A stretch of 64,000 bases of DNA, taken from assembly GCA_018676855.1 (NCBI GenBank), contig JABHDY010000003.1:148136-212135 (forward strand), read 5' to 3'. Below the pieces are notes generated by a model. That model did no database searches. It worked only from the letters and a program-made list of their open reading frames with translations, and was not told where the DNA came from. This DNA comes from Candidatus Woesearchaeota archaeon (GTDB taxonomy: Archaea; Nanobdellota; Nanobdellia; Woesearchaeales; GW2011-AR9). Positions 5,422-26,571 of the stretch are shown one piece after another. Made by a program: the position numbers and the translations under genes. Numbering within the stretch: the first letter of the stretch is position 1; each line of letters starts with the position of its first letter.

Positions 5422-5505
5422 GCGGGGGTGGGAGAGTGGTCAAATCCGCTAGCTTGAGGGGCTAGTCCCTTAGTGGGTACGCGTGTTCAAGTCACGTCCC
5501 TCGCA
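5422..5505 (+). tRNA. tRNA-Leu (anticodon GAG), type II with long variable arm
   Basis: Acceptor GCGGGGG/CCCTCGC+A. Anticodon arm CTAGC-TTGAGGG-GCTAG. Variable stem CCC/GGG. T-loop TTCAAGT. No encoded CCA. TATA-like 'ttttttaaatt' about 28 nt upstream. Confidence 0.85.
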
Positions 5506-5507
5506 CA

Positions 5508-6818: not shown

Positions 6819-6889
6819 AGATTCTTATCACTTTTACCGTCTATAAGCTAAACACAACCTTTATAAACAAATATACTATCCTTCAAGTC

Positions 6890-8875
6890 ATGTACAAAAA
6901 GAGGTTTAGGTTAGATAAAAGTAGTGCTATTTCTAGTTTGTTTAGGCAAAAGAATGGCCAGATTACATTATTCATAATAGTGGGGATTTTACTTATACTT
7001 GCACTTGTACTTGTCATATCATTAAAAACAGAAGTTTTAGTGTTTAAACCTGAAGAATTAATCGTAACAGAAAAAACAAGAATTGAAAATCTTATTACTG
7101 CATGTATTCAACAAATAGGTGAAGATGCTCTTAACCAAATAGGAATTCAGGGTGGATACATTAACGTTCCACCAACAATAGAACAAGATGCATCACTTCA
7201 TTTACGCGTATCTCCAATGCATGTTGTACCATATTGGGCATACGGTAAAGAAACAAACATCCCATCATTACAACAAATTAAAGAACGAACCGACCTTTAT
7301 ATTGAAAATAATTTAAGAACGTGTGTCCTGGCTGAAGAACCATTCCAAGAAACGTACGATATAACTGAAAGAAGCGACATCGTAGCAAACACAGAAATTG
7401 TTGAAAATCAAGTAATATTTAACGTTGAATGGAACCTTGACGTTCAAAACAAACAGGGCGAAACAGTTATTGAAGTTATTAGGCACGTAACTGAATCACC
7501 AATTAAACTTAAACGTCTTCATGCAATGGCAGAAAAGATTATTGAAAGAGAAATGACAGATCTTAAACTGGAAGATATCACACAAGACCTTATTTCTTTA
7601 GAACATCCGGACGTTCCCGTTGCAGGTACAGAAGTACGATGTTCACAAAAAGAATGGAACGTGCAAGAAGTTAAAAATGGATTGAAACAATTACTTCGTT
7701 ATAATGTAAACAAATTACGTGTTCAGGGAACAGAATTTGTTGAATACCCAGAAGATTTCCCATATTATCAAAATCATTACGTCTGGAATTTGGGTGATGA
7801 GTTTATTAATCCTGACGTTGGTGTTGTGTTTAAGTTTGAAGACACGTATCCATTTTCATTTCAAGTTACTCCAACACAGGGCGGTACAATGAGATCAAGT
7901 TCGTTAGGAGGAACAGACATTCTTTCATTTCTTTGTTTACAAAACTGGAAATTTACATACGACGTATCATATCCTGTCCTTGTACAAGTACATGACGAAA
8001 CGACTGGATATGTTTTCAATACGGCGTTTACTGTACATCTTGTCAGGAACATGCCAGATAGAGAAAGTGCACAAGTTGCACGAGGATCAGCAACAACAAC
8101 GTTCGTTGATGATGATAAGTACTGTTCACAACGACGAATACCTATGACAGTTACAACATGGGACCTTGTTGATAATGGTATTGTGTACGATCAACAACCG
8201 TTAGATAATACTGATGTAAGTTTTACATGCATAAAATTTACGTGTCCTCTTGGAAAAACTGTCTTTGACTTTGAACAGCGTGGATATCAAGCATCAAACA
8301 CATGGAACTTCCCGTACTGTGTTGGTGGTATTGTAAGAGGAACAAAAGATGGATATAAAGAAGATTGGCAACGTGTAGTAACAACGTCTGGTGAGAATGT
8401 TGAGTTAAACTTAATTCCAACAGTTACAATTCCTTTATCAAAAATTAATGTTTTAAAACATAGATTGCAAGAAGATATGGAAAATTCTATTGGAACAGAA
8501 ATTGATGATGATGAAATTGTGTCTATCCAAATACGATATGATAAAGAGGACCATAAATTAGTAGAAAATCAACCATTCCATAGCAGTAATGTTGTTCTTT
8601 CTTCAGAAATCGATGAAGAGATACTTAATGAACAATCTATTGAATTTCTTGCTGGTGCAGATTTTACGTATAATGTTCAAGTAAGTATTTTCAATAATGA
8701 ACAACTTGTTGGCGGATATAACCAAAACTGGACTGTACCTTGGGATTTGTTAGTTGATGCAGAAGGAATTACGTTTAATACAATTACAAGTAGTGATACA
8801 AGTGATATGGGATTATTTACATTCATGGCAGAACTGCCAATACATAGCGAGAAAATTTCGCCAGTAATAGAATAG
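6890..8875 (+). CDS. Membrane-anchored extracellular protein, unknown function (first gene of the surface operon)
   Basis: 661 aa from 'MYKKRFRL'. Single TM 'ITLFIIVGILLILALVLVISL'. TATA-like 'tttataaa' at 6860-6867, about 26 nt upstream. The track's 6749 start overlaps the PAC2 gene. Confidence 0.6.
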   Translation: MYKKRFRLDKSSAISSLFRQKNGQITLFIIVGILLILALVLVISLKTEVLVFKPEELIVTEKTRIENLITACIQQIGEDALNQIGIQGGYINVPPTIEQDASLHLRVSPMHVVPYWAYGKETNIPSLQQIKERTDLYIENNLRTCVLAEEPFQETYDITERSDIVANTEIVENQVIFNVEWNLDVQNKQGETVIEVIRHVTESPIKLKRLHAMAEKIIEREMTDLKLEDITQDLISLEHPDVPVAGTEVRCSQKEWNVQEVKNGLKQLLRYNVNKLRVQGTEFVEYPEDFPYYQNHYVWNLGDEFINPDVGVVFKFEDTYPFSFQVTPTQGGTMRSSSLGGTDILSFLCLQNWKFTYDVSYPVLVQVHDETTGYVFNTAFTVHLVRNMPDRESAQVARGSATTTFVDDDKYCSQRRIPMTVTTWDLVDNGIVYDQQPLDNTDVSFTCIKFTCPLGKTVFDFEQRGYQASNTWNFPYCVGGIVRGTKDGYKEDWQRVVTTSGENVELNLIPTVTIPLSKINVLKHRLQEDMENSIGTEIDDDEIVSIQIRYDKEDHKLVENQPFHSSNVVLSSEIDEEILNEQSIEFLAGADFTYNVQVSIFNNEQLVGGYNQNWTVPWDLLVDAEGITFNTITSSDTSDMGLFTFMAELPIHSEKISPVIE

Positions 8876-8880
8876 AAAAA

Positions 8881-11800
8881 ATGAAAAGAATACATGGGCA
8901 CAAAGTTTTAGTAATCTTAGTCTTACTTCTATTTATTAACCTTCCATTCGTAAGTGCATTAGAAATTTCAAACGTACGTGCAGAAGATGTTACGGATACA
9001 AGTGCACGAATTCTATGGGACACTGACGATACTGGTGACAGTTTTGTTGATTATGGTTTAGATACTGAAAATCTTAGAACTGTTGGTGATGCAGCTAAAG
9101 TTACTGAACATTCAATTCAACTTTCTGAATTACAACCAGAAACGGAATATGTTTTTAGTGTTGAAAGTAATGAAATTGTGAATGATAATGATGGAAATTT
9201 ATATTCGTTCATGACATTTGCTCCTGACACTGACGCACCTATGATTGATACCACATTACCAGAATTTGTTTCTGGAGATACTGTTGACATTAATGGTACT
9301 GCAGAATCAGGTTCAACAGTAAAAGTGTATGTTAATGATAATATTGCTGGTGAGATTGTATCTTCTGATGGAACGTTTATGTTTGAAAATGTTAAATTGC
9401 TTCATAATCAACAAAATATAATACGTATTAATGCTGAAGATACTGCTGGTAATATAGGAACATTTGATACAGTTATTTTTGCAGATACAAAAAAGCCTGT
9501 CATTACTATTGAAGACATTGATGAATTGGTTGAAGAAAGTACAGTTACGATTAAGGGTAGTGTTTCTGAGAATAGCACAATTGAATTTACTGTTAATAAT
9601 AGGTCTGTTGGAAATGCTGACGGAGTAACTTTTGAAGAAGAGGTTAATGTTGACGAAGGAGAAAATATTATTATTATTTCTGCAACTGATAAAGCAGGTT
9701 GGACAACAACTGTTGAGAAAACTGTAACTGCTGATACTCGTGCACCAACTGTACGGTTTGATCTTACAGGTGGAACGGAATATTATGAAGGTGTTTCAGT
9801 TACACTTGAAGGAGTTAAACAACGTGCACAGACAAATATTAACGGAGAAACTGAACCAGGTGCAAAGGTATTCTTGTACATTTATAGAGAACGTGGTGAT
9901 GAGTATAGGGCAGACTTTAAACGTGCAATTGCAAGTACGACTGCAGGCGAAGACGGTAACTTTTCGTTTGATGGCATATCTTTCCCACCATCAGCATTTC
10001 CAAGCATTCAAGATCTTTCACCAAGGGAAGTTCCGTCCGGATTGCAAGAAATTTTAATACCTAACTTGCCGTCAATCGGTGAAGAACAAAGAAAAACGTT
10101 TCATGTTTATATCATTGCAGAAGATCAAACGGGTAAGACAGGATATTCACAAAAAAACGTCCATGTAAATTCATGTTATTCAGGTAGTTTTGATCTTGAC
10201 ATTCAACCAATTACCAAATTTCAAGCACCGTTCCGTCTTGATCCAACATTAATGGAAGATGGGAGGGCAACCATTCAAGCAGTGTTTAACATATCATATA
10301 GGGGTACTGCTCTTGGCGAAACTAATCCAGCCACGTTAGAAGTTGAAGAAGGGTACAGGATTCAAAGTGCAACGTTTAGAAAAGCATGTACTCGACAAAT
10401 TAGTGAAGAAGACGATTATGCAACAGGATGTAAGTTATTACCAAATACTCTCTCTGCACAACCTAACGGTGATAATACTGCATATTATGTTACAGCAACA
10501 TTAAATCGTGCAGATGAATTTAGTGAGAGGGAAGATGATTTATGGGATGATTTTAATAGTAAACGGCAATTAAAAATGCCTATTAAGATTTTAGTAAATT
10601 ATCAAGAAAAAGAAGCTAATGGTCAATGGGGAGAACGAAAAACGCAAGTTATGTGTCACGACTTAGGATATTTTGTTGACATTCCAATTGACAGTTCTGA
10701 ACTTGTACCCGACTTCTTAGCAGATGAAGGTGTCGCTGCACTTAACTGGACAATTAACCAGATAGAAAATGTTAAACCGTATTTACGAACTGCAATGCTT
10801 GTAACAGGTATTGGATGTATCGGTTCGTTCTTAACAAAAATGGTTGTACGATACTATAGAGTATTTATGTCATATTTTGAACCGTGGACAACACGATTAG
10901 CTGGAGATGATAAGAAATGTCCTGGAGGAAGTGGACAGCAAAAATTGTATCTTGACAGTACGATTGAACATTGGCAAGAATTGGGGAGGGACGTTCCTCT
11001 TGATCTTACCAAAGAAGAACATTCGCTTGACACTAAATGTCCTTCAACCGCAGGCGCATGGGAATTTGAAAGTTATGTTGATCAGTTGTATAGGTGGACA
11101 TGTGATAGGTTCTTATGCCGTGCAGTTCCTGCAGCATGGACGTCAACAAAAGAAGAGCATGAAGTTGAAGAAGTTATATTGAAACAAAAAATGTGCAGTG
11201 TAACTGGCAATTGTGCATTAATGTATAAAGTCGAGAATTGTCAAGATAAGATTAAATTAAATCCAGCATACGGTAAATTCATTGAAAGAAAAGAACAGGA
11301 GGGACCATGGTCTTGTTGGCGTGATGCAGAAGGCACACATTATTATAGGTGTGTAGGAAGAAATAATGAACCCTCTTTGTGTGGTACGCAAGAAGATATT
11401 ATAAAATTACAAGAGAAAGATATATGGCGTCTTGCACCTGTAGAAAAATTAGGTGATGTTATACCAGAAGCGAAACTTGTCCTTAACCCAGAAAATACTG
11501 ACCAAGTCTGTGCAGCTGTTGATAAGTCATGTGCAACACAATGTAAAAAGAAGTCTGGATATGTAGCTGTTGATGATGGGTTTACTGTTGGTAAGAAAGA
11601 TAATGTCGCTGTTGTAAGTGAAGAAGATAGGAATGCTCAGTCACCAAAAAATGTTGTTAAATCTAAAGGAGCTTGCTACTTAGAAGATTCAGATGGTAAC
11701 CTTAAAGGTGCAGGAAGTGCACGTGTTGACGGTACTAAGTTTGCATCTGGATATACTAAAGATTGTTTTATTGATGAAAACACAGGAGATAAATATCAAT

Positions 11801-14577
11801 GTGTCTGTGAAGAAGATGAAAGTAAAACAAAAGGAGATTATAAGGGAGACAACCTTAGAACAGCAGTTAAAGAAGAAAATGGTCAGGCAGAAGAGTGGCA
11901 ATATAGACAAGCGCGTGTCTTTGCAGAGTCTGGAAAAACTATTGGAACGTACTATCCAGAATGGCGGTATTATAGTGGACGAGACGTATCGGGAGCGTTC
12001 GGCCAGAATTATGCACTTGATGCACTTACACCGAGCGGTTCAGCAAACGAATATTCAACAACACAAGTTAATCCCCGAACACAAATGTTAGGCGCGTTCC
12101 AATCAATGTGTTTAACACAAATTAATGCGCATTTAGAATCTCTTCAAAGCATGCTTATTGGACTACAACAATGTATCATACAAGCGAAACATACAGGGTT
12201 CCATGATGCAGGTATGTGTAAGACAATGTTTACACAGCAAGTGTGCGGCCTTATTTACAAAAGTATTGCGTACCTTGCAAGTGATTGTTCACCATTATCA
12301 ATGAAAGACGTTGATAAAGGTGGTTCAGATGAAGAAGGTATAGCTGATGGTGCAGTTGCATTCTTTGATTCTGGATTTAAAGCAATTCCTGACGCTATGG
12401 ACGCATCTATCCAAGAAGTGAGAGAAGATTATGCAAATTCTCACATGGAACAGTTCTTCGCTGCAGGTTCACAAGGATTCTCTGAATCGTTATGTTTAGC
12501 TGCGTTCGGGTACGATTTTCCAATGGGTATGGACTTTATCATGGACGCTGCAAATGCAGTACCGTCAAAAACTAAGGTCTTTATGCCCGTTACTGAAAGA
12601 GAATTGACAACGTTCAATCCTATTGATGGAACAGCAATACATAATTATCATATTGCAGGAACGTTCATTCCAGGATGTAGCATCCGTGGATATAGAACAA
12701 CGTTAAAATGTGTTGGTTTAGATGATTTGGGCCATCCTAATGTTGAAAAAGGTGGCGATTGTTTACAAGCATCTAATTTACAGTCACCCTACACAGATCA
12801 AAGAACCCACCTTATTGATGGAGGAACAGGTTTCGGCGGTGTAACACGTCGACAAATGTTTGATTTACCAATAGAATCTCCACAACCTATCAGTAGCCAG
12901 TATAGGTATGATCACGTTGTCTTTGAACTTTTCTTAGATCAGGGAGAAAGTCCAGAAGCATGTTTTGATGAAGGGTACAGAACATCTAACGGTGGCATTT
13001 GGTATTTCCCAATAACAGATATTAGTCAAACATTACAAGCAGAATGTTACGCAGATTTAAGTTCAGGACGGTACATCTGTCCTGAGGTTAGTGGATTTTT
13101 TACAGGCGGACAGACATTCTTTGAACATCCGTTCATGGAATGTTATAATAAAGATACTGAAGAATTTACTGACTGCCAGAGTCCCAACTTGTTCATTAAA
13201 AATGATCCAATCGTAATTAAACCGTACATGTACCTTGGAAATGAAAAATCATGTTTAAAAATTACTGATACAAAGGGACAAATAGAACGTGTTATTGAAC
13301 TTCCTGAAAATATTGCCGGACCATACGCACCACGAATACAACTTGCAACTGTTTCAGAGAGTATGCTCAGTGGTAGCGGTATTGCAACAATAATTAATGT
13401 TGACCAAACAGTAACCGGTTGTGGTGGAAATGGTAAAGATGTATACATAAGCGGAAGACCGGGTACGCATAGTAGTCCACGCCGGTTTAGTGTTACAGTA
13501 ACACCAACACAAAATAATATGTTTCAGTTAGATGTTGATCCTAATGTTCAGGTACATTCGCCAACGGGTGGATTGACGTATGGTAAATCTGGTAACACCG
13601 TGGTCGTTATAACTGGAACCACATCACGACAAGAACTTACACGTGACGAAATATTTAACGCACAATTTACTGTTGACGGTTTTACGTTTAGTCAAGTATT
13701 TGATAAAACAACTGCATTATCAACGCCTGCACAATGTTCTTTTCAAACATTACCAACTGACACAACCACACAATCAGTTGGAACAATGAGTGCACTACGA
13801 ATATCTGCACAACTGTTACAGCCAGGTTCAGGTGGAAGTTGTTTCACTGCAGTAACGCCAATGCCTAAGAGTAGTCAAGGAAAAACAAGTCATACACAAA
13901 CAATCCGTGTTCAGTCTCAACGTGTTGAAGAATCTATTGCAAGTGATATGTATGAAGATTTTAAAGCAGGAAATTATCAACTTGTAATTGAAAAAGCAAA
14001 AGATATTGTACAACAGAACATGCAACGTGGCGAAAGTTCATTAACAGACGTACAAGCAACATATTATTGGATTGCAAGTTATGTCATGTTAGGAAGTTCA
14101 CGGTGGAAACAAGATTATGGGTCTGAGATACGAAGTTTGTTAGATCTCTTCTTTTTACGAAATTATGTTGGTCAAACAATTACATCATATCCAAGTGATG
14201 TTAAAAGTACTGGTGAATATCAAAAAGTTGAGAAGTATTTTTGTTGTGTTGCTAAGGAGTTAAATGTTGAAAATCAATATTCTGCATGTCAAGGAAGTGG
14301 TTCTTGCGATGGAATATCTTTAGATGGCGATTTACAAGCAGAACTTGTTTGTAATGCACCAACTACAAAATATAAAGTTATTGTTAGTGATGGAACAGGT
14401 CTTGAAATAAACAAAAAACCACAAGCAGGTTTACAAGGAAATAGTAAAGAAAACATGCCAGATAACGCAGAGTTTGATGTTTGTAATAATCCTAAGCAAG
14501 GAACATGGGCAGTAGTAAGTTTTAACAATATTGTTGGATGGTCAAATATTGCTGCTCAATATGCAAAGAAAAAATGA
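8881..14577 (+). CDS. Giant (1898 aa) secreted surface protein: signal peptide, Fn3-like domain, three Ig-like repeats, internal hydrophobic segment, Cys-rich body, SH3-like C-terminus
   Basis: Signal 'VLVILVLLLFINLPFVSA'. 'ARILWDTDD..VDYGLD..HSIQLSELQPETEYVF' (Fn3/PAP-N-like). Repeats ending 'PDTDAP', 'ADTKKP', 'ADTRAP'. Hydrophobic 'TAMLVTGIGCIGSFLTKMVV' at about aa 637-657. C-terminal 'YKVIVSDGTGLEINKKP..GTWAVVSFNNIVGWSNI'. Confidence 0.8.
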   Translation: MKRIHGHKVLVILVLLLFINLPFVSALEISNVRAEDVTDTSARILWDTDDTGDSFVDYGLDTENLRTVGDAAKVTEHSIQLSELQPETEYVFSVESNEIVNDNDGNLYSFMTFAPDTDAPMIDTTLPEFVSGDTVDINGTAESGSTVKVYVNDNIAGEIVSSDGTFMFENVKLLHNQQNIIRINAEDTAGNIGTFDTVIFADTKKPVITIEDIDELVEESTVTIKGSVSENSTIEFTVNNRSVGNADGVTFEEEVNVDEGENIIIISATDKAGWTTTVEKTVTADTRAPTVRFDLTGGTEYYEGVSVTLEGVKQRAQTNINGETEPGAKVFLYIYRERGDEYRADFKRAIASTTAGEDGNFSFDGISFPPSAFPSIQDLSPREVPSGLQEILIPNLPSIGEEQRKTFHVYIIAEDQTGKTGYSQKNVHVNSCYSGSFDLDIQPITKFQAPFRLDPTLMEDGRATIQAVFNISYRGTALGETNPATLEVEEGYRIQSATFRKACTRQISEEDDYATGCKLLPNTLSAQPNGDNTAYYVTATLNRADEFSEREDDLWDDFNSKRQLKMPIKILVNYQEKEANGQWGERKTQVMCHDLGYFVDIPIDSSELVPDFLADEGVAALNWTINQIENVKPYLRTAMLVTGIGCIGSFLTKMVVRYYRVFMSYFEPWTTRLAGDDKKCPGGSGQQKLYLDSTIEHWQELGRDVPLDLTKEEHSLDTKCPSTAGAWEFESYVDQLYRWTCDRFLCRAVPAAWTSTKEEHEVEEVILKQKMCSVTGNCALMYKVENCQDKIKLNPAYGKFIERKEQEGPWSCWRDAEGTHYYRCVGRNNEPSLCGTQEDIIKLQEKDIWRLAPVEKLGDVIPEAKLVLNPENTDQVCAAVDKSCATQCKKKSGYVAVDDGFTVGKKDNVAVVSEEDRNAQSPKNVVKSKGACYLEDSDGNLKGAGSARVDGTKFASGYTKDCFIDENTGDKYQCVCEEDESKTKGDYKGDNLRTAVKEENGQAEEWQYRQARVFAESGKTIGTYYPEWRYYSGRDVSGAFGQNYALDALTPSGSANEYSTTQVNPRTQMLGAFQSMCLTQINAHLESLQSMLIGLQQCIIQAKHTGFHDAGMCKTMFTQQVCGLIYKSIAYLASDCSPLSMKDVDKGGSDEEGIADGAVAFFDSGFKAIPDAMDASIQEVREDYANSHMEQFFAAGSQGFSESLCLAAFGYDFPMGMDFIMDAANAVPSKTKVFMPVTERELTTFNPIDGTAIHNYHIAGTFIPGCSIRGYRTTLKCVGLDDLGHPNVEKGGDCLQASNLQSPYTDQRTHLIDGGTGFGGVTRRQMFDLPIESPQPISSQYRYDHVVFELFLDQGESPEACFDEGYRTSNGGIWYFPITDISQTLQAECYADLSSGRYICPEVSGFFTGGQTFFEHPFMECYNKDTEEFTDCQSPNLFIKNDPIVIKPYMYLGNEKSCLKITDTKGQIERVIELPENIAGPYAPRIQLATVSESMLSGSGIATIINVDQTVTGCGGNGKDVYISGRPGTHSSPRRFSVTVTPTQNNMFQLDVDPNVQVHSPTGGLTYGKSGNTVVVITGTTSRQELTRDEIFNAQFTVDGFTFSQVFDKTTALSTPAQCSFQTLPTDTTTQSVGTMSALRISAQLLQPGSGGSCFTAVTPMPKSSQGKTSHTQTIRVQSQRVEESIASDMYEDFKAGNYQLVIEKAKDIVQQNMQRGESSLTDVQATYYWIASYVMLGSSRWKQDYGSEIRSLLDLFFLRNYVGQTITSYPSDVKSTGEYQKVEKYFCCVAKELNVENQYSACQGSGSCDGISLDGDLQAELVCNAPTTKYKVIVSDGTGLEINKKPQAGLQGNSKENMPDNAEFDVCNNPKQGTWAVVSFNNIVGWSNIAAQYAKKK

Positions 14578-15185
14578 ATAAAAAAGCAATATCAACAATA
14601 ATGGGAATTATGATTTTCTTAGTAGTAGTAGTTTTTACAAGTTCAATAATTTTAGTTTTAGTTAAATCAAATGTTATTGAAGTTAATAACGAGCCAAGTG
14701 AGGACGTCTTAAACACAAACTTCTTGCCAATTAGTCGTGGTGGTGAATTGGGAATAAAAGAGTTTGTATTTTGTAGTTATGTTGACACAGATTTTAGTTG
14801 TCTTTATCCCTCAGATACTTTTTACCTTAACACTGATGTTCACTTCTTTCTTATTCTTGAAACTACACCGTATAATGGTAAAGTTATGTTAATTGAGAAT
14901 TATATTATAAGAAATCCTTCTGGAGAAATTATTTTCGATACTGGTAAGAAATACAATTACCATTTTGAGACTTCTTCAGATAATATTAAAGAGTTAATTT
15001 ACTTGAGAGATAATTTTAATATTGGTAAAGAATTTGAAACAGGAGATTATTCTTTTGAGTTAATAATTAACAATCCATTATTAGGAATAGAAGAAAGCTC
15101 AACATACAATTTTAAGATGGTTGAAGACCCTTTTGGTTATGAAGAACCCGAACCTTTTAGTGTGGAGGACTTTGAATTACGATGA
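14574..15185 (+). CDS. Pilin-like protein with archaeal class III (prepilin-type) signal peptide
   Basis: 'MNKKA/ISTIMGIMIFLVVVVF' resembles the KG/KA cleavage context of archaeal type IV pilins. ATGA overlap with the giant gene stop (14574-14577). Confidence 0.55.
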   Translation: MNKKAISTIMGIMIFLVVVVFTSSIILVLVKSNVIEVNNEPSEDVLNTNFLPISRGGELGIKEFVFCSYVDTDFSCLYPSDTFYLNTDVHFFLILETTPYNGKVMLIENYIIRNPSGEIIFDTGKKYNYHFETSSDNIKELIYLRDNFNIGKEFETGDYSFELIINNPLLGIEESSTYNFKMVEDPFGYEEPEPFSVEDFELR

Positions 15186-16696
15186 AAAATAGAACAATAG
15201 TATTGTTACTTGTACCTTTAATCTTATTATTACTACCGATACTTCAAGCTGAGACTACTAGTGGTGACACATATAGATGTAGAAATCCTAACGCATGTAA
15301 GGAGATTGATGATGTTTGGAAACAAATTGCACCACTTATTGTTGATAATCCTAACATGATTTGGGACCCTCAAACAGGAAAGTGGCGAGAATACGAGGAG
15401 TTTTATCCTTCAGTAAAAACTTCAGATACGCAAGCAACTATCACAGAAGAAGAAAAAACAGAACAAGATCTTCCTGTTATTGGAACACCCCCAGTTACAG
15501 TACGAGGAAAAGAATGGAAAGCATATCAAGAAAGTATTAAGGCAACACAAGATGCTTTCGGTCCAGAAAATGTTGAAAGGTTTCCAACATTGAGACCTAA
15601 AACAGTAACAGTTGAAAAACCTGATTATAATGGAAATCTTGCTGGGGGTTCATACACCATCGCACTTAACCCAGGAACTACATGTCCGAACGGTATTTGT
15701 TATAATGATATCCATTTGAAACAAAGACGAATTAAAGATAACAAACAAGGGATTTTAATTCATGCAACCGAAGGAAATACATATCTCGGTACTGCAAAAA
15801 GTTGGAATGATCGATATAGTGCAAAAGCAAGTGACCCTATAATTACAAAATGTAAAGAGAAATACTCTGAGAAATATTGTTTTGGCCATATTAGTTTTAC
15901 CCATTATATTTTAGGACGAGAAGGTAAATATATTCAACATGCATCAGAATTTGCTGCCACGTACCATAGTTCTACAAGTAGTAAAAGTAAACAAGTTCCT
16001 GCTGCTCAGTGGGATTATAACACTGTTGCCATTGAAGTTTCTAATGGTGTTACAAAATGTACTGGAATTTGTAATTCTGGTTCTAAAACATATAAAGGAG
16101 TTACTGCAACTGATTGTGATAGAGATGCCGTATGTAGAACTGCGACAAGTATATGGGGTACGAGAGATAATTATAAACCCCAATCTGATTTGGAACCAGG
16201 TAGGTATTCTTCACAATTCTCAGATTCAGTAAAGCTGGAGAAATATTCTGATAATCAAATGAAAGCATTAATCAAATTGACAGCCGAGATTATGATTCGT
16301 CATAATATTCATATTGATAATGTGGCACGACACGCAGACCATACTTGGAGGAAAACAAATGCAGGCCACACAGATCCAGGATCAGCATTTGATTGGATGG
16401 GATTTAAGAAATCATTATGTCTAGCAGTGAACGGATATTATGGACGATCAGTGTATCCTAACTGTAACACATTAGCTATTGTTGGTAGCTCCGCTACGAG
16501 TACAGATTATGGAGGGAGTGATTATGTTGATCCAGAGTATGTTGCGGCGGCTGAATCTGGAATTAGTGATGCACTTGGATTAAAAGAACCTGAAGACGAT
16601 GCTCCAACAGGACCTTATGCGACGGTTAAATCTGCATATGCTGCGGTTGAATCTACCATTGGTGGATTATTTGGATCAACAGAATCTGATGAATAA
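15182..16696 (+). CDS. Exported N-acetylmuramoyl-L-alanine amidase-like protein (Amidase_2/PGRP fold)
   Basis: Signal 'IVLLLVPLILLLLPILQA'. 'GILIHATEGN', 'FTHYILGREGKYIQH', 'YNTVAIEVSNG', 'MKALIKLTAEIMIRHNIHIDNVARHADH..GHTDPGSAFDW'. ATGA overlap with the upstream gene. Confidence 0.7.
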   Translation: MKNRTIVLLLVPLILLLLPILQAETTSGDTYRCRNPNACKEIDDVWKQIAPLIVDNPNMIWDPQTGKWREYEEFYPSVKTSDTQATITEEEKTEQDLPVIGTPPVTVRGKEWKAYQESIKATQDAFGPENVERFPTLRPKTVTVEKPDYNGNLAGGSYTIALNPGTTCPNGICYNDIHLKQRRIKDNKQGILIHATEGNTYLGTAKSWNDRYSAKASDPIITKCKEKYSEKYCFGHISFTHYILGREGKYIQHASEFAATYHSSTSSKSKQVPAAQWDYNTVAIEVSNGVTKCTGICNSGSKTYKGVTATDCDRDAVCRTATSIWGTRDNYKPQSDLEPGRYSSQFSDSVKLEKYSDNQMKALIKLTAEIMIRHNIHIDNVARHADHTWRKTNAGHTDPGSAFDWMGFKKSLCLAVNGYYGRSVYPNCNTLAIVGSSATSTDYGGSDYVDPEYVAAAESGISDALGLKEPEDDAPTGPYATVKSAYAAVESTIGGLFGSTESDE

Positions 16697-18239: not shown

Positions 18240-18333
18240 GCCCCAGTGGCTTAGTGGTTTAGAGCATGTGGCTGTTATCCTTCATTGGAAAGATACCACA
18301 GGGTCGCAGGTTCAACTCCTGCCTGGGGCGCCA
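18240..18333 (+). tRNA. tRNA-Asn (anticodon GTT) with an intron of about 17 nt at the canonical 37/38 position; CCA encoded
   Basis: Acceptor GCCCCAG/CTGGGGC, discriminator G, then CCA. Anticodon stem TGTGG..CCACA is interrupted after 'CTGTTA' by 'TCCTTCATTGGAAAGAT'. T-arm GCAGG-TTCAACT-CCTGC. Confidence 0.8.
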
Positions 18334-20426: not shown

Positions 20427-21284
20427 ATGCAAGAAAAGAAACACCCAATTATAACCCATCTCTTAATCTTCCTACGAGGACTATTTATGGGCATTGCAGA
20501 CGTCATTCCAGGCGTCTCTGGTGGAACAATAGCATTCATTACAGGCATTTATCCCAGACTGATACATTCTTTAGGAACGTTTAACTTTTCATTCATATTA
20601 TTATTGTTCAAAGGTAAGTTCACACAATCATGGAAATCAATTAAAAAGAATGATTTTGCATTATTTATTCCTTTAATAACAGGAATAGGAATTGCCATTT
20701 TTATTATTTCAAGATTAATGGTGTTTCTATTAGAAACATATTCTGGTACAACGTTTGCATTCTTTTTTGGATTAATCCTTGCATCTGCACTCTTTGTATT
20801 ACGAAAAGCTGGCAAATTGTCTCTTGAGAAAGCAATCTTTGTTGTGCTCGGTTTTATAGGCGCGTACGTTCTTGCAGGGTTATCAGCAATTTCTGTTAAT
20901 CATTCACTTCCAATAATTTTTGTTTCGGGAGCAGTTGCTATCTGCGCAATGATTCTTCCAGGAATATCTGGCGCGTTTATTTTACTTTTATTAAACCAGT
21001 ACCAATACATTATCAAAGCATTGCACACATACCAATGGACAGTTATTATCACATTTATCATTGGCGCAGCTACAGGATTAATAGGTTTTTCAAAGTTAGT
21101 AGATTATGTTCTCAGAAAATTTAAATCACTAACATTATCATTTTTAGTTGGTGTTATGTTAGGATCGTTACGTATTCCTATAGAAGAAATTTCTGTTGCT
21201 GGAACAAACTGGCATGTCCTCGTATTTGGTTTACTTGGATTTATTATTGTATTTGTATTAGAGGGCGTGTTTGGAAGAAAATAA
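20427..21284 (+). CDS. DUF368-family membrane protein (family recently linked to undecaprenyl-phosphate recycling)
   Basis: Duplicated signature 'GIADVIPGVSGGTIAFITGIY' and 'MILPGISGAFILLLL'. About 8 TM helices. Confidence 0.8.
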   Translation: MQEKKHPIITHLLIFLRGLFMGIADVIPGVSGGTIAFITGIYPRLIHSLGTFNFSFILLLFKGKFTQSWKSIKKNDFALFIPLITGIGIAIFIISRLMVFLLETYSGTTFAFFFGLILASALFVLRKAGKLSLEKAIFVVLGFIGAYVLAGLSAISVNHSLPIIFVSGAVAICAMILPGISGAFILLLLNQYQYIIKALHTYQWTVIITFIIGAATGLIGFSKLVDYVLRKFKSLTLSFLVGVMLGSLRIPIEEISVAGTNWHVLVFGLLGFIIVFVLEGVFGRK

Positions 21285-21291
21285 GTAAGCA

Positions 21292-22527
21292 TTATCGTTT
21301 TAATAATTCTTCAATTTGTAACAATCGGTTATACTTTGCAGTTCTCTCGCCTCTACATGGTGCACCCGCTTTTATTTGGCCGCAGCCAAGTCCAACTGCT
21401 AAATCTGCAATAAACGTATCTTCAGTCTCTCCACTTCTATGAGATACCATAACCTTCCAGCCAGCATCTAAGGCCATTTGTGCAGCATCTAACGCTTCCG
21501 TTAGTGTTCCAATCTGATTAACTTTAAGTAATAAACATGTACAACTCTTTTCTTTAATTGCAGCTTCTATTCGTTCAGTGTTTGTTACAGTTAAATCATC
21601 ACCAACAATTTGTATTTTTGATCGTTCCCTCAGCTTTGCAAAACTGTCAAAATCTTCCTGATGAAACGGATCTTCAATAGAAATTATTGGATATCGTTTT
21701 ATTAACGTACAATAATAATCTAACAATTGTTCCTTTGTTAACTTTTTACTATCAACAGTATATTTATTGTTACTAAAGAACTCTGACGCGGCACAGTCAA
21801 TCGCAATGTCAACTTTATTCTTGTACCCAGCATCACGAATAGCCTTTGTTAATATTTTAAGTGCATCTGTTGCTTTGTGTAACTTATCTGGTGCGAAACC
21901 GCCCTCGTCACCAACGTTCGTTGTACCTTTCCCATACGTCTTATGTAACTCTTTCTTCAGTAGATGATAAATCTCACTCGCTGCTTGAAGATTCTGTTTA
22001 ATTGATCGTAATTTTGGCACAATCATAAATTCTTGAAAACTTAATCTATTATCTGCATGTTTCCCACCATTAATAACGTTAAAAAATACTTTTGGGATTG
22101 TACTATCTTTTTGTACTTGTGGAAATGTGTTAATATATTCAAATAATTGAATTCCTTGAGATTCTGATGCTGCTTTGGCACATGCTAACGAGACGCCCAG
22201 AATAGCATTTGCTCCCAATCGACGTTTATTATCAGTAGCATCCCGTTCAATCATCATTGAATCGCACTCTCTTTGTTTAGAACAATCTATCCCTTTCAAA
22301 AGTGGTGTTATCTTCTGTTTGACATTTCTCACTGCTTTCTGAACACCCATGCCCATATAACGTTTTCCACCATCGCGCAACTCTAACGCTTCATGATCGC
22401 CAGTACTTGCTCCAGATGGTACGGATGCCGTACCAGAAACGTCACCAGTGTACACTGTAACTTCTATAGTAGGATTACCTCGAGAGTCAAGAATTTCTCG
22501 AGCAGTAATATCTTTAATAGCTGGCAT
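21292..22527 (-). CDS. eno: Enolase
   Basis: 411 aa. 'REILDSRGNPTIEV', 'SGASTGDHEALELRD', 'IVGDDLTVTN', 'SHRSGETED'. Confidence 0.95.
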   Translation of the reverse strand: MPAIKDITAREILDSRGNPTIEVTVYTGDVSGTASVPSGASTGDHEALELRDGGKRYMGMGVQKAVRNVKQKITPLLKGIDCSKQRECDSMMIERDATDNKRRLGANAILGVSLACAKAASESQGIQLFEYINTFPQVQKDSTIPKVFFNVINGGKHADNRLSFQEFMIVPKLRSIKQNLQAASEIYHLLKKELHKTYGKGTTNVGDEGGFAPDKLHKATDALKILTKAIRDAGYKNKVDIAIDCAASEFFSNNKYTVDSKKLTKEQLLDYYCTLIKRYPIISIEDPFHQEDFDSFAKLRERSKIQIVGDDLTVTNTERIEAAIKEKSCTCLLLKVNQIGTLTEALDAAQMALDAGWKVMVSHRSGETEDTFIADLAVGLGCGQIKAGAPCRGERTAKYNRLLQIEELLKR

Positions 22528-26483: not shown

Positions 26484-26571
26484 TACAAAATACGTTTTCT
26501 AAAACCTATGTTGTACTATCATTGTTTAAGGAGCGAAATCGTTTTATAAATAGTATTAACAACTATATAAA

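Follow-up and report, generated by a model that had tools for sequence, protein, structure and literature searches.

A woesearchaeal locus pairing pilin-like and giant secreted proteins with a variable murein-hydrolase slot suggests an apparatus for attaching to and opening bacterial walls

Organization of the four-gene locus

The window, that is, the whole stretch of 64,000 nucleotides that was analysed, carries four co-directional genes, g1 to g4 (661, 1898, 203, and 504 aa), downstream of one TATA box that sits within the 71-nt gap between a PAC2 gene and g1. A gap of 5 nt separates g1 from g2, while the g2/g3 and g3/g4 pairs overlap by ATGA. This arrangement, described in an earlier note on the same DNA, was confirmed by ORF and promoter analysis. 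The features are as follows.

6860..6867, + strand: TATA-box-like TTTATAAA, read from the sequence, 22 nt before the g1 ATG
6890..8875, + strand: g1, 661-aa conserved surface protein (ORF from ATG)
6947..7024, + strand: g1 aa 20-45, putative prepilin-peptidase site and pilin-type alpha-1 helix (residue pattern)
8881..14577, + strand: g2, 1898-aa secreted giant with Sec signal peptide (ORF, Pfam)
8965..9735, + strand: g2 aa 29-285, fn3 / bacterial Ig-like / Glucodextran_B-like beta-sandwiches (Pfam, NCBIfam)
10558..13260, + strand: g2 aa ~560-1460, most conserved core (homologue alignment, model)
14371..14571, + strand: g2 aa 1831-1897, SH3b-like C-terminal tail (homology to the tail of homologue P0029)
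14574..15185, + strand: g3, 203-aa type-IV-pilin-like protein (ORF, overlaps g2 by ATGA)
15182..16696, + strand: g4, 504-aa secreted enzyme with signal peptide (ORF, ATGA overlap with g3)
15275..15436, + strand: g4 aa 32-85, shared module, directly after the signal peptide
15746..16381, + strand: g4 aa 189-400, Amidase_2 domain (N-acetylmuramoyl-L-alanine amidase / PGRP fold; Pfam E=1e-8)

The TTTATAAA element is likely the promoter of a four-gene transcript, leaderless or with a short leader. The 64-kb window holds 13 copies of this octamer (6.6 expected), none of them inside 6890-16696, and it precedes other genes at a like spacing of 22-25 nt (26543 before 26572; 59935 before 59967). A longer g1 start (GTG, 6749) was rejected, since it would overlap the upstream PAC2 gene and the N-termini of homologues favour the ATG; an alternative g3 ATG at 14538 has no support from homologues.

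Archaeal markers stand on both sides of the operon (those in the window are GatD, GatE, PAC2, family-B polymerase, aEF-2, and Rad50), and an intron-containing tRNA lies at 18240-18333. The G+C content is even along the window (0.30-0.39), and the flanks, PAC2 upstream and bPH plus Metallophos downstream, are common to relatives, so there is no sign of chimerism. The contig is woesearchaeal (DPANN): the markers, the base composition, and synteny with Woesearchaeota MAGs bear out the archaeal origin proposed earlier. The locus is set among core genes, namely PAC2, GatD, enolase, and a RelA-like gene.

Two pilin-like proteins and a giant secreted protein

Homologues of g1 form >270 protein clusters with ~50% identity and a uniform length of ~660 aa. 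Its N-terminus is prepilin-like, resembling a class III signal, and is followed by an alpha/beta domain and several beta-sandwiches. Specifically, residues 20-45 comprise basic residues, G23/Q24, and then a hydrophobic helix of 19-23 residues. Q24, T26, F28, I29, G32, and all 8 Cys are invariant in the homologue alignment, and the motif [KR]x0-1[GA]Q[VI]T[VILF][FY]I occurs in 71/74 distinct homologues, a pattern which suggests processing by prepilin peptidase. The 661-aa protein of the earlier note stands; what was called its TM anchor is, in view of the conserved N-terminal motif, more aptly regarded as a prepilin-like signal. An AlphaFold2 model of g1 (pLDDT 82.6) gave no convincing fold match in the PDB, the fold-level hints being weak, low-TM cohesin matches.

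The g2 protein is comprised of a Sec signal peptide, fn3/Ig-like domains, a long Cys-rich core, and a variable C-terminal tail. ORF, Pfam matches (fn3/Pur_ac_phosph_N, aa 29-98; Big_6/Big_13, 130-198; Glucodextran_B, 215-285), and its 46 Cys, ~35 of them invariant in an alignment of 51 homologues, agree with its earlier description as a secreted, Cys-rich Fn3/Ig protein. We found ~65 full-length homologues with 35-50% identity, all from Woesearchaeota/Nanoarchaeota. The core contains a 60-residue helix (aa 611-670), the moderately hydrophobic centre of which (638-656) is probably not transmembrane, because its mean hydropathy across homologues is 1.54. A model of aa 540-1700 (AlphaFold2, pLDDT 75) was searched against PDB and viral folds and no match to the core was found; the earlier note, too, had matched neither of the two large proteins to a characterised system. 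Compared with the closest relative, L003, aa 29-285 are only 62-79% identical and the core 85-92%, and the N-terminal Ig/fn3 region is the more variable, adhesin-like end.

The C-terminal tail of g2 resembles that of homologue P0029 (42% identity, E=2e-18), which in turn matches SH3_3 (E=1.8e-6, 28.5 bits vs a cut-off of 27); the tail of the window's g2 has no direct Pfam match and is missing from L003. We regard it as a candidate murein-binding module. Tails of other g2 homologues match Peptidase_M74, a murein endopeptidase (E=4e-12), and phage lambda lysozyme (E=7e-9). The giant of the earlier note stands, and it bears in addition a murein-related tail of its own.

The g3 protein starts with a short basic leader with A at -1, followed by a hydrophobic helix. 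A [GA]-x4-[E/Q] motif followed by a hydrophobic stretch is found in 58/74 distinct homologues, 47 of these 58 carrying Glu at +5. This conservation supports the prepilin-type signal proposed earlier, though the match to Pilin_N (Pfam) is below threshold (E=0.083). With 35% identity to the closest relative, against 74-87% for PAC2, g1, bPH, and Metallophos and 80% for the g2 core, g3 diverges fast.

The secreted amidase

Behind its signal peptide, g4 carries the module common to slot proteins and then an Amidase_2 domain that is divergent and holds a Cys-rich insertion (~60 aa, 4 Cys). The Pfam match lies above the cut-off (36 bits vs 26), in line with the Amidase_2/PGRP-type assignment made before, and NCBIfam gives a partial AmpD match. 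Whole-protein matches in the PDB are weak; the alignment with AmiD and AmpDh2 covers the C-terminal half and puts H384 and D398 on the HAD...DPG motif of these enzymes. H194, Y242, E256, H262, H384, and D398 are invariant in an alignment of six slot amidase domains, and the Zn-ligand positions, H194, H384, and D398, are intact, as the earlier reading requires. The five homologues of g4 are 34-46% identical to it. His396 occupies the position of the catalytic Lys (Lys162 of AmpD, Lys128 of T7 lysozyme).

A conserved trio followed by a variable enzyme slot

We compared about 100 related loci, comprising 19 from species-representative genomes and 79 from metagenomes. The g1-g2-g3 order is kept in every locus whose contig is long enough to show it, and the trio with a downstream enzyme slot is seen in about 70 loci. 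The trio is always followed on the same strand by one to four secreted proteins, and ATGA overlaps often couple the trio and slot genes. The full quartet with the same flanks recurs on an independent 65.7-kb contig, the amidase of which is 34% identical. The gene order is thus conserved elsewhere, in keeping with the earlier reading, but it is the trio with a slot of changing content, and not the quartet, that relatives keep.

The genome loci carry Amidase_2, SLT, M15_4, M23, Polysacc_deac_1, GDSL, and weak M74 matches in the slot. Among 65 metagenomic slot proteins, SLT (15) and GDSL (15) are followed by M15_4 (10), DUF2272 (10), M23 (4), Phage_lysozyme2 (4), and Amidase_2, so that the window's Amidase_2 is a rare minority cassette (3/65). 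Many slot enzymes also carry a nuclease or phosphoesterase domain, and 73/78 slot proteins have a signal-peptide-like N-terminus. Judged by these domains, the gene position downstream of g3 serves as a slot in which secreted enzymes of several domains, most of them directed at murein, appear as cassettes. Compared with the closest relative, the g2 tail, g3, and the slot enzyme are 35% or 25% identical or absent, while the flanks are 74-87% identical; together they form a hypervariable island, the kind of pattern seen where an interface keeps pace with a partner organism.

Slot proteins also share a ~55-aa module with the pattern C-x5-C-x-E-I-D-x-V-W ... W-D ... G-x-W ... Y, which has no match in Pfam. 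A regular expression combined with an HMM gave 81 module matches among 1623 ORFs: 78 in slot ORFs, two in slot proteins cut by contig ends, and one in the L002 amidase homologue, which lies on a short contig without upstream genes. The module is present in 65/69 loci and is exclusive to slot proteins among the ORFs scanned. Additionally, a synteny-blind profile search of 1.84 billion proteins recovered 80 with the module, mostly with murein-hydrolase domains (mostly SLT, GDSL, M15, M23, M74, and amidase). Its retention irrespective of the catalytic domain implies that the slot proteins have a partner or an address in common and do not simply diffuse away.

A proposed apparatus for contacting bacterial walls

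We consider it reasonably probable that the locus encodes a cell-surface apparatus that binds and locally digests bacterial murein walls. The earlier note had proposed such an apparatus from the amidase, the adhesin-like giant, and the pilin-like protein, and the conservation of trio, slot, and module supports it; synteny, fusions, and the shared module suggest that the parts are physically coupled. The large g1 and the small g3, both type-IV-pilin-like, would be cut by a prepilin peptidase and would then either stay in the membrane as anchored proteins or assemble into a short stalk resembling a pilus. The Sec-exported, disulfide-rich g2 would associate with g1 and g3 through its conserved core and contact the target through its variable ends, with Ig/fn3 domains at the N-terminus and, at the C-terminus, the candidate murein-binding SH3b-like tail that this genome has. 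The slot enzymes would cut different murein bonds, the one here as an N-acetylmuramoyl-L-alanine amidase, and the ~55-aa module may serve as their tether, with the assembly of g1, g2, and g3 or the wall as its anchor point. Because the archaeon makes no murein, as we assume from the literature, the substrate would be the wall of a bacterium, be it partner or prey. Its local digestion may permit close contact and uptake of cell contents, which fits the fused nuclease and phosphoesterase domains of many slot enzymes. In this view, a tiny archaeon that lacks a bacterial-type wall would attach to bacteria and open them.

Several observations count against this reading. The sub-threshold Pilin_N match of g3 is one, and g1 has zero matches in Pfam and NCBIfam, pilin families included. 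No solved adhesin, pilus-tip, or scaffold structure resembles g1 or the core of g2, and no gene for a prepilin peptidase, pilus ATPase, or platform was found in the window or the examined flanks. Some slot domains lack murein specificity (FGE-sulfatase, Metallophos, DUF218, EEP), and the His in place of the catalytic Lys, together with the large Cys-rich insertion, makes the murein activity of g4 putative. We know of no Woesearchaeota with a demonstrated bacterial host. Methanogen partners have been proposed for Woesearchaeota in work cited within PMC9723730.

The slot proteins might alternatively be freely secreted bacteriolysins or scavenging enzymes for murein, nucleic acids, and esters, encoded beside an unrelated, conserved trio of envelope or pilus genes at a permissive, co-expressed insertion site with no apparatus. 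Their ordinary Sec signal peptides and frequent nuclease or phosphoesterase domains would suit this, and where archaeal murein hydrolases have been characterised, they act as toxins that the cell secretes (PMC12352652). We nevertheless hold it to be rather unlikely, since the association is essentially invariant across loci that share no more than 35-50% identity with the window's g1 and g2, ATGA coupling is frequent, g2 has repeatedly gained murein-cutting or murein-binding tails, and the module is retained regardless of the catalytic domain.

We give less credence still to the trio as a housekeeping envelope structure, such as an S-layer-like coat, pilus, or division/envelope scaffold, that plays no part towards bacteria and whose enzymes remodel the cell's own glycan-containing envelope. 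The identity and fixed length of g1 across its clusters fit housekeeping better than a fast-evolving adhesin, and so does the setting amid core genes; the hypervariable island, however, is unexpected for a coat. Moreover, the slot enzyme families recognise features confined to murein, as established for these families: MurNAc-L-Ala for Amidase_2, D-amino-acid peptide bonds for M15, M23, and M74, and MurNAc-GlcNAc for SLT and lambda-type lysozyme. Our literature search gave no claim of murein in these archaea, and murein hydrolases are called normally absent from Archaea (PMC8204110). An artefact, either a bacterial or chimeric contig or a decayed, horizontally acquired amidase relic without function, is scarcely credible. 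Amidase_2 is typically bacterial or phage-borne and the g4 family is rare and divergent with its weak PDB matches, but archaeal markers and uniform base composition extend over both sides, the quartet and its flanks recur on an independent contig, the trio recurs in many loci, and catalytic and Zn-ligand positions invariant at such low identity imply purifying selection.

Comparison with known systems

Murein hydrolases of DPANN archaea have been published before, and the extracellular ones of Woesearchaeota/Pacearchaeota have been proposed to target bacterial hosts (PMC8204110, PMC9723730, PMC12352652). These reports describe large SLT-domain proteins of both groups as fam00969 (PMC8204110), GH23 in "vampiristic" Woesearchaeota (PMC9723730), and a survey of archaeal peptidoglycan hydrolases (PMC12352652). 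They share with the present locus the organisms, the SLT, amidase, and M15/M23 families, and the inference of a bacterial target, and the published family of large SLT proteins probably includes the multidomain SLT proteins of the slot. In contrast, the published enzymes are listed individually and the type usually cited is SLT, whereas the window's cassette is Amidase_2. Our literature search found no paper on the locus architecture, with its upstream trio and cassette slot, on the shared ~55-aa module, or on murein-directed tails of the giant protein. With the Amidase_2/PGRP zinc amidases (E. coli AmiD/AmpD, Pseudomonas AmpDh2, T7 lysozyme), g4 shares the H...H...D triad positions and the conserved "HY", "HS/HA", and "IE" motifs; unlike them, it is very divergent, comes from an archaeon, and has a novel module fused at its N-terminal end.

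Bacterial type IV pilus tip complexes combine minor pilins with PilY1/PilC adhesins, and modular pilins are known, such as PilB and PilC of Streptococcus sanguinis. The locus likewise places small and large pilin-like proteins beside a large Sec-exported, adhesin-like non-pilin. Saccharibacteria bind their hosts by type IV pili (PMC9894109, PMC11623550), a use like that proposed here, where an ultrasmall symbiont would attach itself to its bacterial host. The differences are that the trio shows homology neither in sequence nor in fold to PilY1, PilC, or any solved pilin, that assembly ATPase, platform, and peptidase genes are not nearby, and that pilus systems have no counterpart of the lytic-enzyme cassette and its shared module.

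In cellulosomes, dockerin-bearing enzymes are mounted on a scaffoldin that has cohesins and a module for binding the substrate. The present system differs in that it has no dockerin or cohesin sequence match, its substrate would be murein rather than cellulose, and binding of the module to a scaffold is putative. In both, however, varied catalytic domains for one polymer carry one short non-catalytic module, and a giant multi-beta-sandwich surface protein with a substrate-binding module, SH3b-like in this case, is encoded alongside.

A conserved surface locus in an archaeal setting

Our data support the reading of the four co-directional genes g1-g4 as a conserved woesearchaeal surface locus, in which genes for pilin-like proteins and for a giant scaffold or adhesin are accompanied by exchangeable murein-degrading enzymes; we infer physical assembly of these parts, the role of a module shared by the enzymes, and enzymatic activity. 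The ORFs match the layout described in the earlier note, in which one TATA-like box precedes four genes joined by a short gap and two overlaps:

6860-6867, TTTATAAA box, 22 nt 5' of the g1 ATG, within the sole intergenic gap
6890-8875, g1, 661 aa
8881-14577, g2, 1898 aa, 5-nt gap after g1
14574-15185, g3, 203 aa, ATGA overlap with g2
15182-16696, g4, 504 aa, ATGA overlap with g3

The gene downstream of g4 is convergent and ends 15 nt past it. The TTTATAAA octamer occurs in the window at twice its frequency in shuffles and is not found inside the operon (6890-16696). Before other genes it recurs at an equal spacing of 22-25 nt, and boxes at 26543, 37899, 48408, 51921, 59935 and other positions lie ~22-30 nt before several start codons on either strand. 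This pattern fits archaeal TATA boxes that would drive leaderless transcripts, and the recurrence of the boxes close to start codons suggests that transcripts of this genome are generally leaderless. A scan for bacterial sigma-70 promoters and intrinsic terminators returned chance-level counts and is inapplicable to an archaeon. A 94-nt tRNA gene at 18240-18333 (+), given a four-base 'anticodon' (gtta) by ARAGORN and 58.8 bits over 91 nt by the Rfam tRNA model, most likely carries an archaeal intron. At 5422-5506 (+) ARAGORN calls a tRNA-Leu(GAG), where Rfam is silent at its gathering threshold.

The trio g1-g2-g3 is followed by a variable slot

The conserved gene order that the earlier note looked for is present on a 65.7-kb contig with a g4 homologue (34% identity), which carries PAC2, genes of 663, 1935 and 207 aa, an Amidase_2 gene and, two genes on, bPH_2. 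Pattern-based scans recovered 19 related loci from species-representative genomes and 79 from metagenomes; the sample includes near-duplicates, and the proteins encoded after g3 (slot proteins) were de-replicated at 90% identity. The trio is intact in every sampled locus whose contig is long enough, and 3' of it lie one to four co-directional, often overlapping genes, beyond which stand either enolase and a RelA-like gene or a convergent bPH_2 gene.

The enolase gene of most relatives (L004, L012, L013, L020, L021 and most of L024-L100) directly follows the slot enzymes on the same strand, in some cases sits between g3 and the slot enzymes, and is usually followed by a bacterial-type RelA/SpoT-like gene (HD_4 + RelA_SpoT + TGS). 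The window enolase lies at 21292-22527 (-), 4.6 kb from the locus on the opposite strand. In bacteria, enolase is known to moonlight at the cell surface. In one marine Woesearchaeota MAG, the canonical cluster is directly preceded by another that has diverged strongly (L018:1701-10001), with a g1-like 763-aa protein (22% identity) and then co-directional genes of 1025, 709 and 271 aa; this second cluster may encode a paralogous form of the apparatus. Some kb downstream of the window locus, at 20427-21284 (+), there is a DUF368/VCA0040-like gene (undecaprenyl-phosphate translocase-like, E=3e-74), as there is on the contig of a distant relative with the same quartet (P0004). Speculatively, this gene product could be a polyprenyl-phosphate flippase for glycosylating surface proteins.

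The genes after g3 in different loci are not mutual orthologues; they encode secreted proteins of 400-1400 aa, with a signal-peptide-like N-terminus in 73 of 78. In the genome loci, their Pfam domains are combined as GDSL + Amidase_2, Metallophos + Peptidase_M15_4, Polysacc_deac_1 + SLT + Exo_endo_phos, GDSL + SLT, Peptidase_M23 + Amidase_2, or SLT alone, together with weak M74, M15 and SleB-type matches. Architectures assigned protein by protein with local jackhmmer, for which Pfam-verified regions served as seeds, are approximate. A metagenomic Pfam census of 65 non-redundant slot proteins, counted per family only and wrongly including a few housekeeping proteins, gave SLT and GDSL (15/65 each), DUF2272 and M15_4 (10 each), FGE-sulfatase (9), Metallophos and DUF218 (8 each), EEP (5), M23 and Phage_lysozyme2 (4 each), Amidase_2 (3), Polysacc_deac_1 (2) and M14 (1). 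By what is established for these families in general, the bonds cut by most of them exist only in murein. The slot is therefore polymorphic, and the window amidase is among its uncommon occupants.

Slot proteins share a ~55-aa module

A segment of ~55 aa with the consensus C-x3-7-C-x-E-I-D-x-V-W ... V-W-D ... G-x-W ... F/Y is common to the slot proteins, and is placed directly after the signal peptide (g4 aa 32-85) or between catalytic domains. It has no direct match in Pfam. An HMM built from regex instances matched 81 of 1623 ORFs across all sources. Slot ORFs account for 78 of these matches, and the remainder consists of two truncated slot ORFs and the amidase homologue encoded by the short contig L002. 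Of the 69 loci with a sizeable slot protein, 65 encode at least one protein with the module.

A synteny-blind search, in which a profile of four module copies was run against 1.84 billion representative proteins, returned 80 proteins. Pfam matches in the 71 that were scanned, again counted per family only, comprise SLT (23/71), GDSL (13), Metallophos (11), FGE-sulfatase (9), M15_4 and DUF218 (5 each), DUF2272 and M23 (4 each), M74 and Amidase_2 (3 each), 3D (2) and Amidase_3 (1). Among ten of these proteins that were looked up, a single one carries an organism name, and it comes from Woesearchaeota. The module-bearing protein P0277 (1728 aa) was tested as a g2 homologue and is not one.

g4 is a predicted N-acetylmuramoyl-L-alanine amidase

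Residues 189-400 of g4 match Amidase_2 (PF01510) over profile positions 6-130 of 131 (E=1e-8, 36 bits vs a gathering cut-off of 26), and NCBIfam gives a partial AmpD match. The g4 family is rare, with five members only among 5.8 billion clusters, all five of which have precomputed PF01510 matches. The zinc triad of Amidase_2 is present as H194 ('IHAT'), H384 ('RHAD') and D398 ('TDPG'), the latter two aligning with the HAD...DPG motif through which AmiD and AmpDh2 bind zinc. Members of the g4 family conserve H194, Y242, E256, H262, H384 and D398; across six slot amidase domains from different loci these residues are invariant, and E285 is kept as an acidic residue. His396 occupies the catalytic-Lys position, two residues before the last ligand, and is invariant in the g4 family; the domain also holds an unusual Cys-rich insertion. 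As judged from this conservation, the catalytic core is under selection, and g4 is a predicted N-acetylmuramoyl-L-alanine amidase, for which the family implies MurNAc-L-Ala cleavage. An acidic low-complexity C-terminal extension of ~75 aa (aa 425-504, window 16453-16693) is absent in all four homologues.

g1 and g3 are pilin-like

Both g1 and g3 show the leader features of type IV pilin-like proteins, namely a short basic leader, Gly/Ala at -1 and a hydrophobic alpha-helix of ~20 residues; such proteins often have Glu at +5. Homologues of g1 form over 270 clusters, which share ~50% identity with it and hardly differ in length, and all 8 Cys are invariant. The g1 N-terminus consists of a basic stretch and Gly/Ala followed by invariant Q24, T26, F28, I29 and G32, and the motif [KR]x0-1[GA]Q[VI]T[VILF][FY]I occurs in 71 of 74 homologues, which is the sequence pattern of a predicted class III (prepilin) signal. 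The AlphaFold2 model of g1 (pLDDT 82.6) contains an N-terminal helix, a linker, an alpha/beta domain and several beta-sandwiches; neither Pfam nor NCBIfam matches the protein. Of 74 g3 homologues, 58 have [GA]-x4-[E/Q] ahead of a hydrophobic helix, and 47 of these have Glu at +5, a signature that is classical for type IV pilins. The window's own g3 has Met at +5, and g3 falls below threshold of the curated Pilin_N profile (E=0.083, 14 bits vs a cut-off of 25). No prepilin peptidase, assembly ATPase or platform protein was found in the 64-kb window or in the flanks of related loci, and the remaining window ORFs, inspected for type IV pilus machinery and murein-synthesis genes, belong to housekeeping families only.

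g2 is a giant protein with variable ends

The ~65 full-length homologues of g2 (35-50% identity) all come from Woesearchaeota/Nanoarchaeota. The protein is composed of a Sec signal, fn3/Ig-like domains, a conserved core with ~35 invariant Cys, and a variable C-terminal tail that begins after a conserved 'EYQKI..YLCE' motif. Searches of the g1 and g2 sequences against the PDB yielded nothing useful. Foldseek returned low-TM beta-sandwich noise and no convincing relative for the g1 model against the PDB, and likewise no match beyond such noise for the g2 core model (AlphaFold2, aa 540-1700, pLDDT 75) against PDB and BFVD, so no fold is assigned to either.

The tails of g2 homologues carry Peptidase_M74 in P0030 (E=4e-12), a phage-lambda-type lysozyme in P0008 (E=7e-9 to 3d3d and 1am7) and SH3_3 in P0029 (PF08239, 28.5 bits vs a cut-off of 27). 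The window tail has no direct Pfam match and is 42% identical to the P0029 tail (E=2e-18); by this transitive match it is probably SH3b-like and a candidate wall-binding domain. In P0042 and P0056, a transglutaminase-core (papain-like) domain is inserted among the N-terminal Ig-like domains at aa ~240-370 (E ~1e-9). Repeats in the tail of another homologue, P0048, weakly match an alpha-galactosyl-binding lectin (LDL, PF21691), with E=9.6e-5 and a score of 22.8 bits, below the 27-bit cut-off. Together, the accessory domains of P0042, P0056 and P0048 indicate that both ends of the giant protein accept such additions.

Within g2, aa 638-656 (window 10792-10848) form a conserved, moderately hydrophobic segment with nearly invariant G643, C646 and S649, in the middle of a predicted 60-residue helix (aa 611-670). 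It was rejected as a confident TM span, given its only moderate hydropathy across homologues and its position within that helix.

A hypervariable island lies between conserved flanks

Comparison of the window with L003, its closest relative, which comes from groundwater, locates the variation.

Identity between the window and L003
PAC2: 87%
g1: 77%
g2 core: 80% overall, up to 92%
g2 tail: absent in L003
g3: 35%
Slot enzyme: 25%, catalytic domain differs
bPH: 74%
Metallophos: 79%

As identity is low or absent only at the g2 tail, g3 and the slot enzyme, these turn over together between conserved flanks.

Interpretation and alternatives

As a mechanism, the locus might encode a 'mureinosome', in which a giant scaffold anchored by pilins (g1, g2, g3) would carry many enzymes in the manner of a cellulosome. 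Through the ~55-aa module, acting as a docking domain, the scaffold would take up interchangeable enzymes that cut murein, remove acetyl groups or degrade nucleic acids, and the bacterial host would be selected by the variable tail (SH3b, lysozyme or M74) together with the Ig-like end. We regard this reading as a whole, with scaffold, docking module and host-selecting ends, as a rather unlikely one. If it were true, Woesearchaeales would have in this locus their main organelle for attacking hosts, and bacteria, not archaea, would be what most of the order, a very abundant one, lives on.

The main alternative to an apparatus at the cell surface is plain secretion of the enzymes, their linkage to g1-g3 being genomic only; the signal-peptide-like N-termini of nearly all slot proteins would fit it, and the module common to the great majority of loci speaks against it. 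The literature search found no claim of murein synthesis in these archaea, and such enzymes have been treated as aimed at bacteria (PMC8204110, PMC12352652). Since these archaea are not known to make murein, and in view of those papers, the likeliest substrate is the wall of a bacterial partner or prey; remodelling of the archaeon's own envelope is less likely. Less likely, too, is a housekeeping coat built of g1-g3: the trio is constant across loci, as a coat might be, while its g2 tails and g3 vary with the slot enzyme. An artefactual contig or gene is likewise a less likely explanation. The possible chimerism raised in the earlier note is countered by the archaeal markers GatD, GatE, PAC2, PolB, aEF-2 and Rad50 in the window and by its uniform composition (G+C 0.30-0.39), and the closest relatives are Woesearchaeota MAGs. 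A polymorphic-toxin reading and a viral or mobile-element origin were both rejected, as an immunity gene is lacking, neither folds nor sequences give a viral signal, and the chromosomal flanks are stable.

Woesearchaeota are among the most widespread uncultivated archaea, with proposed lifestyles that range from methanogen syntrophy to predation on bacteria. The locus, which in all related loci sampled joins pilin-like and giant surface proteins with rotating murein-specific enzymes, gives the bacterial-host hypothesis a concrete molecular handle: a genome marker locus, a defined module and scaffold for binding tests, and cassettes and tails whose variation could be set against the wall chemistry of hosts. 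The locus further opens a large, diverse and untapped set of predicted archaeal enzymes against bacterial walls, of which the window amidase is one; archaeal peptidoglycan hydrolases are of interest as antibacterials (PMC12352652).

Comparison with known systems

The likeness to the cellulosome would be functional only. Cohesin and dockerin have no Pfam match in g1, g2, g4 or the slot proteins, and weak cohesin-like fold matches were obtained for g1 only (TM 0.1 normalised to query). Like polymorphic toxins, the locus combines variable catalytic domains with a constant module; unlike them, it often has the module in an internal position and lacks an adjacent immunity-like gene, which an organism without murein would not need.

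Extracellular murein hydrolases in Woesearchaeota and Pacearchaeota, with the same ecological inference, have been described by Castelle et al. 2021 (PMC8204110), Vigneron et al. 2022 (PMC9723730) and Strock et al. 2025 (PMC12352652). The first of these also reported 51 lineage-specific families, mostly of unknown function, to which g1-g3 plausibly belong. In the literature searched we found no description of the trio-plus-slot architecture, the shared module, murein-directed g2 tails or the hypervariable island. The idea of enzymes directed against bacteria is thus already known, and their organisation in an apparatus-like locus appears to be new.
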